A stretch of 64,000 nucleotides of DNA, taken from Clostridium sp. 26_21. Its GTDB lineage: Bacteria > Bacillota > Clostridia > TANB77 > CAG-508. Position numbers and translations under genes: made by a program. The notes beneath the pieces were generated by a model. The model was given only the letters and a program-made list of their open reading frames with translations, had not been told where the DNA came from and searched no databases. The stretch is taken from the NCBI GenBank assembly GCA_001915995.1, contig MNRO01000017.1:73402-137401 (forward strand), in the 5' to 3' direction. Positions 8,777 to 11,897 of this stretch are shown here, piece by piece. Each line of letters starts with the position of its first letter. Position 1 is the stretch's first letter.

Positions 8777-10735
8777 CTAATTATTATTATCTTGTTCTTC
8801 TTTTCTTCTTTTTTCTGCTAATTTATTAACATTTGTTTCAACAAATTCAAACTCTTTTCTTGTAGGAGTAATTTGAATAACAGCTGTATCTTGACCTACT
8901 TTTAGTAGTCCTTCACCTTTTGTACATGTAACTAAAAAAGATGCTTCTCCTTCACTAAGTTTAAATACTTCTTTTAATTGTGCAATTTCTGATTTATCCT
9001 GTGCTAAGAATAATTTAGTATCAGATGATGTTAAAACTGCTTGTGCCTCTGGTTTTTCATAGAAATCTTGAAATCTCTGTGATATAATTGCTAATGAAAC
9101 ATTTCTTTTTCTGGCACGTCTTGCCATTTTATTTAAGAAATCTACTGCTTCTGGGAATGGAAGTAACATCCATGCTTCATCAACTATAACTCTTTTTTGT
9201 CTAGCCTTTTTTCTATCTTCACTATTTTTCTTTACAAATTTTTCCCAAATCCAAGACATTAATATTTGTTGAGCAAGTGGTCTTGCAAAACGCTCTTCAA
9301 GCTGTGAAATATCTATATTTATAAGAGGTGCTCCCTCCATTAGATCAAAAGTAGATTGTCCATCAAAATATGCCATCTGCCCATTATACTCTCTTACATA
9401 TTGTTTCATAACTTTTAGCAAATAACTGTATTGGAATTCATAATCTTTATTTGTATTACTTTGTGCACTTTGTCTAATACGCTTATACCAAGAACCAATT
9501 GTTGGCATTTCTTTCTTTCTTTTTTCAAAAACATTACTTGAATTTACATTTTCATATAAACTTGTTGGATTAGCAGTAATTCCTTTTGCAGCATATTCTT
9601 GTGAAACTGCTTCAGCAATTATCTGTTTTGTTAACTCATTTACATTATCTGTTCTAGTACTACCTTTTGCCATTGTCATTAAAGCCTGAGTAACATCCTC
9701 AACTTTACTTTCAACATTTAAAACTTCTCTTTCCCTTCCTGTTATTTCATCTTTTGTTCTTTCAACTTCAATATCAAATAAATTAATAATTGTTTTAGAT
9801 GTTGGGCTAATTACAACATTTATTCCTCCTAATGCTTCAGCTACAATAGAATATTCTCCTTCGGCATCTAATGTTAAACTCTCTATTCCCATCAATACAG
9901 ACGATCTTGAAATCAAAGTTTTCATTGTTACAGATTTTCCTGCACCAGACTTAGCAAATATAACCATATTATAGTTAGTTAATGATGAATGAAAGTTATC
10001 AAACAAAATTGGAACACCTGTCTGTCTATTTATTCCAATTGGAACACCTGTATCATGTCCAATATTTGAAGTGGTAAATGGAAATACTGTTCCCATTGAT
10101 GGTCTATCAAATATGTGTTTTTTCTTTATTTTATCTTCCATTAATGGTAATGCTGATTTAAATCCATCTTCTTGAATTGCCCAAGCACTCCTTATTCCTA
10201 TTAATGATTTTGACATTTCTGCAGTAAGCATTTTAGATAATCTTTCCAAATCTGTTTGGCTATATGCAAATAGTGTTGAAACAATAGATGCTTCATATAA
10301 TTTATTAAATCCTGATGCTATTTCATCTCTTAATTGTTCAGTTTCAAATCTTTTTTGTGCAACTATACTTTCTCTATTAATATTTCCTTTATCACTTGCA
10401 ACAATTCTTTCTGTCTCAAGTTCAGTAATAGTTTTATTAAGCTCATTTTGTGTTGTTGCTTCATCCAATGGTTTTATGTATATAGAGGTATTTATATCTC
10501 CAAACATATATAAAGATCTAAATAGCTCTGGAAATATACATGTTCTAGGTAAACTAGAAACATAAAAGCTTCTTGCATATCTTTTTACATTTGAAATAAT
10601 CTCTAAATGATCAATATTTGACACATCAATTCCAGATGGAGCAATCAATTCTTTTATGCTCTTTTTTCTTAAAATTGTTCTTGATTCTTCTATATTATTA
10701 TTTAATTGCTCATCTTCAGCTTTTTTTATTTTCAT
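8777..10735 (-). CDS. VirB4/TraE/TcpF-family T4SS ATPase, ATPase-domain ORF. Walker A SGAGKS (MVIFAKSGAGKSVTMK), Walker B VIVDEAWML. The ORF track starts it at 10756; the ATG at 10735 (MKIKKAEDEQ), with GGAGGA 7 nt upstream, is the more likely start.
   Basis: ORF track, 659 aa. Motifs recognised by eye; clear paralogy to the ORF at 37367-39226 (IFGTSGAGKS ... PTSENYINVFDI ... DEIWRL). Its 5' end overlaps the upstream N-domain ORF. Confidence 0.7.
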   Translation of the reverse strand: MKIKKAEDEQLNNNIEESRTILRKKSIKELIAPSGIDVSNIDHLEIISNVKRYARSFYVSSLPRTCIFPELFRSLYMFGDINTSIYIKPLDEATTQNELNKTITELETERIVASDKGNINRESIVAQKRFETEQLRDEIASGFNKLYEASIVSTLFAYSQTDLERLSKMLTAEMSKSLIGIRSAWAIQEDGFKSALPLMEDKIKKKHIFDRPSMGTVFPFTTSNIGHDTGVPIGINRQTGVPILFDNFHSSLTNYNMVIFAKSGAGKSVTMKTLISRSSVLMGIESLTLDAEGEYSIVAEALGGINVVISPTSKTIINLFDIEVERTKDEITGREREVLNVESKVEDVTQALMTMAKGSTRTDNVNELTKQIIAEAVSQEYAAKGITANPTSLYENVNSSNVFEKRKKEMPTIGSWYKRIRQSAQSNTNKDYEFQYSYLLKVMKQYVREYNGQMAYFDGQSTFDLMEGAPLINIDISQLEERFARPLAQQILMSWIWEKFVKKNSEDRKKARQKRVIVDEAWMLLPFPEAVDFLNKMARRARKRNVSLAIISQRFQDFYEKPEAQAVLTSSDTKLFLAQDKSEIAQLKEVFKLSEGEASFLVTCTKGEGLLKVGQDTAVIQITPTRKEFEFVETNVNKLAEKRRKEEQDNNN

Positions 10736-11897
10736 CTTTTGTTCCTCCTTCCTCATTTTCCTTCTTTTTTCTTCTTACTTTTACTTTTGCATCCTCAGAA
10801 ATATCTTGGTCTAAATAATCTTGATTTTCTGTTATTAATTGTTCTGCCATATCAAATATCAAATTTTTAGCATTTTCTTCTCTTATTCTTACCATCATTT
10901 CCTTATCACTTTTTGCCTCTAAAATTGCTTGTTGCGCAACCTTTACAGCCTCTTCCTCAATTTTTTTATTTATTAACTTCATTTTCTTATCTAACACATC
11001 TGGGGCTGTAGAATATAAAGCTTCAAATCCTGAATTTAATGCTTGTTTTGCGCTAAATACATCTGCATCATCTCTATTATAGGCATTATATAATAATTCA
11101 ATTAATCCTTGTGAATCTAATATTTTAGAATTTACTTCACATCTTGTTAATGTTCTCATCATTGATCTTGCTTTTGTATATAACTCTGAAAATACCATAC
11201 TTTGAATTTCATCTTTTGTGTAATTTTGTGTACTAACTTCATCTTCATAATAAGGTATTATTATATAATATTTCTTATGTAATACATTACTATTTAAACT
11301 ACTCTTTTCTGTATCTGCAATTATATCTTGAGTATACTCAAATTTATTTTTTTCTCTTAAATATTCAAGATATGTATTATATATTTGTTGATCAGTATAT
11401 TCTCCTGGTTCAGCATTTTTCATTTGTATATATTGATTTTGAATAACATTATATTTATCCTGAATATCCCTAAATTTTAACTTATATGATTGAATACTTT
11501 GCTCTAAATTTACTGTTCTTGTTTGTACATATATCTGTATTTCTGATTTTAATGTATTCAAAAACTCTATAAATCCTTGTTCAACAGATGTTCTCTCCAT
11601 ATCTGACATTAAGTCATAGTTTACTCCTTGGCATTCTATTACCATTAAAAATTTACCTTTTTTTTGTATAATCATATTGTCTTCAATTTTTTCAAACTCC
11701 ATAAAATCAAAAATGGAATTAATATTATATGCAACTTTATTTTTGGCTGTTTCTTTTTCTTCTGATTGTTCTTTATTTCCTTTCTTTTTTTCTTTTGCCA
11801 CAATAAATATCCATACTCCTATCAATACAAATATAACAACAACTAAAATTATAGCAATAATTGTTAATATTGAAACTAATTGTTCTGAATTATTCAT
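10716..11897 (-). CDS. VirB4-family N-terminal domain protein carrying an N-terminal TM helix. The segment YNINSIFDFMEFEKIEDNMIIQKKGKFLMVIECQGVNYDLMSDMERTSVEQGFIEFLNTLKSEIQIY matches the N-domain of Gram-positive VirB4/TcpF/Orf16 proteins. A long charged coiled region follows, ending in a K/E-rich tail.
   Basis: ORF track, 393 aa. Similar to the 182-aa ORF at 36814-37362 (IPIEKILEKGIIKLKKNKYIKILKVNPINFNLKTQMEKESILNSYKIFLK). Its 3' end overlaps the ATPase ORF in the +1 frame across an A7 run. Confidence 0.6.
   Translation of the reverse strand: MNNSEQLVSILTIIAIILVVVIFVLIGVWIFIVAKEKKKGNKEQSEEKETAKNKVAYNINSIFDFMEFEKIEDNMIIQKKGKFLMVIECQGVNYDLMSDMERTSVEQGFIEFLNTLKSEIQIYVQTRTVNLEQSIQSYKLKFRDIQDKYNVIQNQYIQMKNAEPGEYTDQQIYNTYLEYLREKNKFEYTQDIIADTEKSSLNSNVLHKKYYIIIPYYEDEVSTQNYTKDEIQSMVFSELYTKARSMMRTLTRCEVNSKILDSQGLIELLYNAYNRDDADVFSAKQALNSGFEALYSTAPDVLDKKMKLINKKIEEEAVKVAQQAILEAKSDKEMMVRIREENAKNLIFDMAEQLITENQDYLDQDISEDAKVKVRRKKKENEEGGTKDENKKS

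Follow-up and report, generated by a model that had tools for sequence, protein, structure and literature searches.

The VirB4 ATPase of type IV secretion systems occurs as a single polypeptide, as in PrgJ of pCF10, TcpF of pCW3, the CD1110 family and the Mbov_0397 family of mycoplasma integrative conjugative elements, and in a two-gene form, of which the Staphylococcus aureus plasmids pSK41 and pGO1 (pGO1 subclass, MPF_FATA) are examples. In these plasmids, a VirB3-like gene is followed by trsD and then by the gene for a VirB4 of ~670 amino acids (aa; 672 aa in pSK41). Here we analyze a pair of overlapping genes of this kind in a 64-kb stretch of DNA (contig MNRO01000017.1; hereafter, the window) from Clostridium sp. 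26_21. Both genes lie on the minus strand, which an initial annotation of this DNA had left unstated. Open reading frame 1 (ORF1; 10716-11897 in the ORF list, 393 aa) ends in ...EGGTKDENKKS and a TGA stop codon at 10718-10716, and ORF2 (8777-10735, 652 aa from the ATG at 10735) is read as a short VirB4-type ATPase. The initial annotation had interpreted them as the N-terminal domain and the ATPase of a split VirB4, and had suggested that slippage on a run of seven adenines (A7) in their overlap might yield a fused protein of about 1040 aa. Our analysis indicates that ORF1 and ORF2 are likely two separate, independently translated proteins that jointly correspond to one VirB4.

In R388, the N-terminal domain of VirB4 is responsible for membrane attachment, for contacts with VirB3 and VirB8, and for dimer contacts (PMC12857230). 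TrsD of pGO1/pSK41 was previously reported to be a remote homologue of the VirB4 N-terminus, and a chromosomal type IV system of Patescibacteria was described that combines VirB4, TrsD, PrgI/VirB3 and VirB6 with arrays of VirB2-like pilins, has no relaxase nearby and lies close to dnaA/dnaN (PMC12102498). Literature searches for a split VirB4 or for the Pfam family PF26593 ('TraC-like') found nothing, and a 2025 review of type IV secretion discusses no split VirB4 or TraD role for Gram-positive systems.

ORF1 and ORF2 match complementary parts of VirB4

The ATPase core that the initial annotation had assigned to a 659-aa ORF was located in ORF2, with a Walker A motif, SGAGKS, at aa 263-268 (9932-9949, minus strand) and a Walker B motif, VIVDE, at aa 516-520 (9176-9190, minus strand). 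The 659-aa form is the longest version of ORF2 (8777-10756, minus strand), starting from an upstream ATG at 10756; the NCBI annotation uses the 652-aa form (P0121, 100% identity). ORF2 matched the Pfam families PF19044 (E-value [E] 1.8e-16) and PF12846, as well as the structure of a VirB4 C-terminal domain (4AG5, E 6e-24). Its matches to full-length models began well inside the profiles, at positions 172-730 of 752 in conju_CD1110 (NF045971, E 1.5e-61), 278-891 of 894 in the Mbov_0397 model (NF045975) and 215-733 of 800 in the F-type TraC model. Similarly, when the ORF2 family was compared by hhalign with an alignment of 21 CD1110-type VirB4 sequences, ORF2 residues 12-636 were placed on PrgJ residues 209-790 (E 2e-45). 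The short VirB4 of pSK41, TrsE, is alignable with ORF2 from end to end (E 9e-26). ORF2 remained below the equivalog cut-offs of the NCBIfam models (conju_CD1110, 208.7 of 325 bits; VirB4_plasma, 187.6 of 590; F-type TraC, 152.5 of 567). Its neighbours are a PrgI-like (VirB3-like) gene two genes upstream and a gene for a 942-aa polytopic membrane protein downstream. Judged by its sequence, ORF2 is a divergent VirB4-type ATPase without the first 170-280 profile positions.

ORF1 is predicted to consist of three parts, all encoded on the minus strand. The AlphaFold2 model of the protein (mean predicted local distance difference test [pLDDT] 79) shows a hydrophobic N-terminal helix at aa 4-38 (11784-11888; ILTIIAIILVVVIFVLIGVWIFIV; pLDDT ~92), which is the predicted membrane anchor, an alpha/beta domain at aa 60-290 (11028-11720) into which a helical hairpin is inserted, and long C-terminal helices at aa 301-383 (10749-10997), followed by a Lys/Glu-rich tail. 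These features agree with the transmembrane helix and coiled region that had been proposed for this ORF. A precomputed assignment to PF26593 was present for the protein identical to ORF1 (P0001) and for all of its listed homologues. In a scan of another copy of Pfam-A, this family was not returned for ORF1 or for nine relatives, and no meaningful match was obtained; its presence in one set and absence from the other points to a difference between Pfam versions.

Three kinds of comparison were used to relate ORF1 to VirB4. When 45 members of the ORF1 family were scanned against NCBIfam models, 29 of them matched the N-terminal region of NF045975 (VirB4_plasma, Mbov_0397 family) at approximately positions 18-366, with a best E of 1.4e-7, and one member matched positions 3-98 of conju_CD1110 (E 6e-4). 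The TrsD/TraD model, NF041427, was matched by 11 of the 45 (best E 3e-6). For profile-profile comparison with hhalign, an alignment of 21 CD1110-type VirB4 sequences was assembled from a metagenome scan, plasmid records and a homologue search, the last of these conducted with the first 300 aa of the CD1110-type VirB4 from Gulosibacter (6 matches). The ORF1 family aligned with this set such that ORF1 residues 57-133, the core of the alpha/beta domain, corresponded to PrgJ residues 32-111 at the N-terminus of the full-length protein (E 1e-4); reversed-sequence controls gave E-values of 0.48 and 0.84. The same core also aligned with residues 15-84 of TcpF and 9-73 of the Gulosibacter VirB4, and TrsD as well as the homologues from pXO1 and from a Clostridium beijerinckii plasmid aligned at the same N-terminal motif and template columns as ORF1. 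At the sequence level, no solved structure was matched by ORF1. In a Foldseek search of the ORF1 model against the PDB, TrwK/VirB4 accounted for 14 of the top 15 matches, with VirB4 (TrwK) of R388 first; the best match had an E of 2e-3 and a probability of 1.0, with query-normalised TM-scores of 0.25-0.32. These comparisons support the assignment of ORF1 as a putative membrane-anchored, TrsD-like/'TraC-like' (PF26593) homologue of the N-terminal part of VirB4. The initial identification of the 393-aa ORF as a VirB4 N-domain is borne out by family profile searches, at the level of a remote similarity.

ORF1 and ORF2 appear to tile a full-length VirB4, with the break near PrgJ residue 208, because the ORF1 family matches the N-terminus of the profiles and ORF2 matches the same profiles from positions ~172-278 onward. 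ORF1 would comprise one membrane helix at its N-terminus, then an alpha/beta domain with homology to the first ~170-200 residues of VirB4, and a helical tail. ORF2 would start where this homology ends and would carry the remainder of the N-terminal domain together with the Walker A/B motor, its translation presumably being directed by its own strong ribosome-binding site within the end of ORF1. We propose that ORF1 is inserted in the membrane via its N-terminal helix and would there bind to ORF2, at the N-terminal region of the latter, and probably also to the PrgI-like (VirB3-like) protein. It may do in trans what the N-terminus of VirB4 does in cis in R388.

Some observations weigh against this interpretation. 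ORF1 itself scores weakly on the models, with an E of 0.87 on NF045975 and of 0.0066 on the TrsD/TraD model (16.3 bits against a cut-off of 200), and its similarity to the VirB4 N-terminus is remote, single-sequence hhalign comparisons giving E-values of 0.003-0.3. The binding of ORF1 to ORF2 is a step that we infer, and the +1 relation of the two overlapping frames persists in 29 of 31 related loci, as discussed below. The profile scores of ORF1, together with best E-values of 1e-4 by profile-profile alignment and 2e-3 by Foldseek and the low TM-scores, are what would be expected if ORF1 were an accessory membrane protein unrelated to VirB4, resembling it by chance or convergence, and ORF2 were a complete short VirB4. 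However, independent methods (NCBIfam scans, hhalign against three full-length VirB4 proteins, and Foldseek) agree on one region of VirB4, exactly that region is missing from ORF2, and both the Pfam name 'TraC-like' and the reported homology between TrsD and the N-terminus of VirB4 (PMC12102498) point in the same direction. We regard an unrelated ORF1 as unlikely.

The two-gene arrangement in relatives and in known systems

The homologues of both ORFs were consistent with two separate proteins. More than 6,468 homologues of ORF1, stand-alone proteins of ~400 aa, were present in the protein collection. The best 120 listed were 296-422 aa in length and all stand-alone, and none of the best 150 cluster representatives (50% identity) exceeded 605 aa. 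The best 120 listed homologues of ORF2 were likewise all stand-alone, at 643-660 aa. A fused ORF1-ORF2 protein was not found among the listed close homologues of either ORF. We also compared 31 related loci from different species, in which ORF1 identity ranged from 41 to 84%. The ORF1-like and ORF2-like genes were adjacent yet separate in all 31, which provides the comparison of the junction in related genomes that the initial annotation had called for. The ORF1-like gene kept its middle position, between a VirB3-like gene and a short VirB4 gene (~650-700 aa), in the window, in the 31 loci, in the C. beijerinckii plasmid, in pXO1 and in pSK41.

The same gene order recurs in described plasmid modules. 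In Bacillus anthracis pXO1 and on the C. beijerinckii plasmid, a PrgI family gene is followed by a gene for a hypothetical protein and by one for a DUF87 ATPase, and the middle protein aligned with the ORF1 family with an hhalign E of 2.9e-22 for pXO1 and 3e-46 for C. beijerinckii. The ATPases of both are short VirB4 proteins that aligned over 94-97% of ORF2. In contrast to the window, the partner proteins in pXO1 and C. beijerinckii are 304 and 335 aa long, and their genes abut the ATPase genes with a 2-nucleotide (nt) gap. The resemblance to pSK41 lies in the order of the VirB3-like, TrsD and short VirB4 genes. TrsD of pSK41, however, is a protein of 227 aa without the hydrophobic N-terminal helix or the long C-terminal helices of ORF1, and its gene does not overlap the trsE equivalent but is separated from it by 14 nt.

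ORF1 and ORF2 together cover the whole length of the single-polypeptide VirB4 proteins, with the differences that two genes are present here and that ORF1 adds the helical hairpin within its domain and the long helical tail. The initial statement that canonical VirB4 proteins are single polypeptides holds for PrgJ and TcpF; it does not extend to the pGO1/pSK41 type or to pXO1, which share the two-gene arrangement. As an instance of this known and documented arrangement the pair in the window is ordinary, although its domain layout is a variant one.

The ORF1/ORF2 junction and the question of recoding

The junction was found to be as initially described when measured from the ATG at 10735. ORF1 and ORF2 overlap by 20 nt (10716-10735, minus strand), from this ATG to the ORF1 stop codon, with ORF2 in the +1 frame. 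The overlap reads AAT AAA AAA AGC TGA and contains the string AATAAAAAAAGCTGA, within which the A7 run occupies positions 10727-10721 (minus strand). A Shine-Dalgarno sequence, GGAGGA, is located within the 3' end of ORF1 (10748-10743, minus strand), with a 7-nt spacer to the ATG at 10735. Since ORF2 thus has its own strong ribosome-binding site, two polypeptides are expected.

A similar junction is found at the other end of ORF1. The PrgI-like (VirB3-like) small membrane protein encoded upstream (11890-12249, minus strand; PF12666 PrgI, E 0.0012), whose position is occupied by an annotated PrgI family gene in pXO1, overlaps the start of ORF1 by 8 nt (11890-11897, minus strand; ATGAATAA). In its GGAGGA-N7-ATG design and in its frame offset, this junction matches the one between ORF1 and ORF2, and prgI and prgJ of pCF10 overlap by 47 nt. 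Because these junctions overlap likewise, such overlaps are the normal packing style of these operons.

The alternative to separate translation is that programmed +1 frameshifting, or transcriptional slippage in which one A is lost or two are gained, occurs at the A7 run and yields a membrane-anchored VirB4 of 1039 aa, either beside the separate proteins or in their place. The A7 run does lie within the overlap, where tRNA-Lys could formally re-pair in the +1 frame. In 29 of the 31 related loci the two frames maintain the +1 relation, and a single-polypeptide form is known elsewhere, as the Mbov_0397 profile (894 positions) spans both parts. However, neither the run nor the overlap was constant among relatives. 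At the junctions of two loci with 82-84% identity, the run was A5 (L001) and A6 (L002), and it had no fixed position elsewhere. The overlap was 44-59 nt in the 29 loci that share the frame relation, the 20-nt overlap being confined to the window lineage. In two loci (L021 and L026) there was no overlap, and both ORFs shared one frame, with a stop codon and a GGAGGA spacer between them. Nor did the genes overlap on the C. beijerinckii plasmid, on pXO1 or on pSK41.

The position of the ORF1 stop codon beside the A7 run is likewise specific to the window lineage. In relatives at 82-92% identity (P0013-P0040), the ORF1 tail is 8-14 residues longer (...KKRGRRKIS, ...KARRGRKPVSK). The codon that follows KIKK in the ORF2 frame is GCT (Ala) in the window and CAA (Gln) in L001, and it is this replacement that creates AGC TGA in the ORF1 frame. 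Because ORF1 continues for another 8-14 codons in relatives at 92% identity, we conclude that the stop codon beside the A7 run arose by substitution in the window lineage. Reading of TGA as Trp under genetic code 4 was also considered as a route to a fusion and was rejected, as the ORF1 frame meets a TAA codon seven codons past the TGA.

Two features expected of a recoding site are a slippery sequence whose position is conserved among homologues and a downstream frame without its own initiation signals. The A7 run was found in the window lineage only, and a strong Shine-Dalgarno sequence (GGAGG-type site or AGGAG core, 5-9 nt before the ATG) preceded ORF2 in 31 of 31 related loci as well as in the window. 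No stimulatory RNA structure was found at the junction (minimum free energy -4 kcal/mol, z-score -0.26). The sense strand of ORF1 contains five A runs of 7-8 nt, and efficient slippage at A7 would be harmful at the four that lie outside the junction. The A7 run is unremarkable in a sequence of 25% GC, because the window holds 153 A or T runs of at least 7 nt. Together with the lack of a fused protein among the listed close homologues, these findings leave fusion by slippage at A7 unsupported and make it very improbable, although low-level accidental slippage may occur. The persistent +1 relation is attributed to shared ancestry, since an indel in a dual-coding overlap would be expected to disrupt one protein or the other. 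The proposal of recoding can be dropped; the observation of two overlapping ORFs was itself correct, and the arrangement was already known.

Homopolymers are typical sites of indels and the window derives from a metagenome-assembled genome, yet an indel introduced by assembly or sequencing, or the recent decay of a single VirB4 gene into a pseudogene, has a negligible probability as the origin of the split, given that 22, 64 and 102 independent contigs carry proteins identical to ORF1 and ORF2 (102 for the 652-aa ORF2), that the two-gene state is kept down to 41% identity in the 31 loci and on plasmids of cultured strains, with no uninterrupted ORF found among close relatives, and that ORF2 is provided with start signals of its own. 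The split is both real and old, and the recurrence of identical proteins on many independent contigs excludes an assembly artefact.

A putative secretion cluster near the replication origin

The pair is part of a secretion cluster (268-13627, minus strand) that is chromosomal and near the replication origin, because dnaA (29871-31238) and dnaN, on the plus strand, and a yidC-jag-mnmE-mnmG-rsmG-parA-parB block, on the minus strand, are in the same window (origin region 21031-32708). A distance of ~19 kb separates the VirB4 gene from dnaA. A relative whose ORF1 is 64% identical (L086-L088) has a pilin-PrgI-ORF1-VirB4 cluster directly after parB, and onward from it are genes for an M23 peptidase and for three proteins of 855-890, 990 and 316 aa. 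Neither a relaxase nor a VirD4-type coupling protein was visible in the window or in the 10-kb flanks, and none was in view in the 64%-identity relative.

Upstream of the PrgI-like gene, three tandem small genes (12360-12731, 12782-13183 and 13196-13627, minus strand) each encode a signal-peptide-like start and two hydrophobic segments. TrbC/VirB2 pilin models matched two of the three (PF04956, E 2.8e-9 and 2.4e-5; PF18895), and the middle gene is similar in size and layout to its two pilin-matching neighbours. An array of VirB2-like pilins was unexpected for a Gram-positive system of the MPF_FATA type. Just upstream of these genes is a terminator-like hairpin (13705-13738, minus strand) of 13 pairs followed by a T run. 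A promoter-like sequence, TTGATT-17-TATAAT with an upstream TG, was observed at 13991-13963 (minus strand), and the operon may start here. Both features are matches to a consensus only, and in a promoter scan, sites were no more numerous than in shuffled sequence. A ~7-kb block (14139-20480, minus strand) that contains two small ORFs and genes for a GGDEF diguanylate cyclase, a DHHW protein, an MBOAT acyltransferase and a TMEM164-like protein separates the secretion cluster from parB. This block is absent at this position in L086 and is therefore a lineage-specific insertion.

Downstream of VirB4 are three genes for large proteins (minus strand), at 5851-8679 (942 aa), 3297-5768 (823 aa) and 268-3210 (980 aa). 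The 942-aa polytopic membrane protein occupies a VirB6-like position, matched PF18895, and had weak matches to the NCBIfam Mbov_0395, Mbov_0396 and pLS20_p028 conjugation membrane protein models. In two of the three large proteins, a polytopic region includes a T4SS_pilin-like segment (PF18895), and no Pfam match was obtained for the 980-aa protein. A 53-aa ORF whose product is hydrophobic at the N-terminus (8612-8773, minus strand) lies between VirB4 and the 942-aa gene and overlaps the annotated start of the latter (8679); either this ORF encodes a genuine small membrane protein or the 942-aa gene begins further downstream.

As read here, the cluster comprises a VirB2-like pilin array, PrgI, a TrsD-like protein, a short VirB4, giant VirB6-like membrane proteins and an M23 peptidase. 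It resembles the Patescibacteria system in component set and layout, the set in the window being 16-18 kb from dnaA, and differs from it in that the source organism is a Clostridium (Clostridia). Tentatively, the pair might be the VirB4 motor, in two pieces, of a core-genome, non-conjugative type IV machine located beside parAB-rsmG-mnmG-mnmE-yidC-dnaA both in the window and in the 64%-identity relative. A lineage of low-GC gut Clostridia would then carry the Bacillota counterpart, and possibly the source, of the Patescibacteria system, although we consider this larger proposal doubtful.

Implications

The comparisons give a coherent picture in which a large uncharacterised family would supply, in trans, the N-terminal piece that short VirB4 ATPases lack. 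This family takes in TrsD of pSK41/pGO1, the hypothetical protein of pXO1 and more than 6,000 proteins from gut metagenomes. The origin-proximal cluster without a relaxase in view is a more interesting lead than the split VirB4. The cluster, with its conserved origin-adjacent position in gut Clostridia, mirrors the Patescibacteria system and is possibly a non-conjugative secretion or uptake machine; if this is true, the presence of the membrane-anchored N-domain as a subunit of its own would be a functional trait of this class of secretion system.

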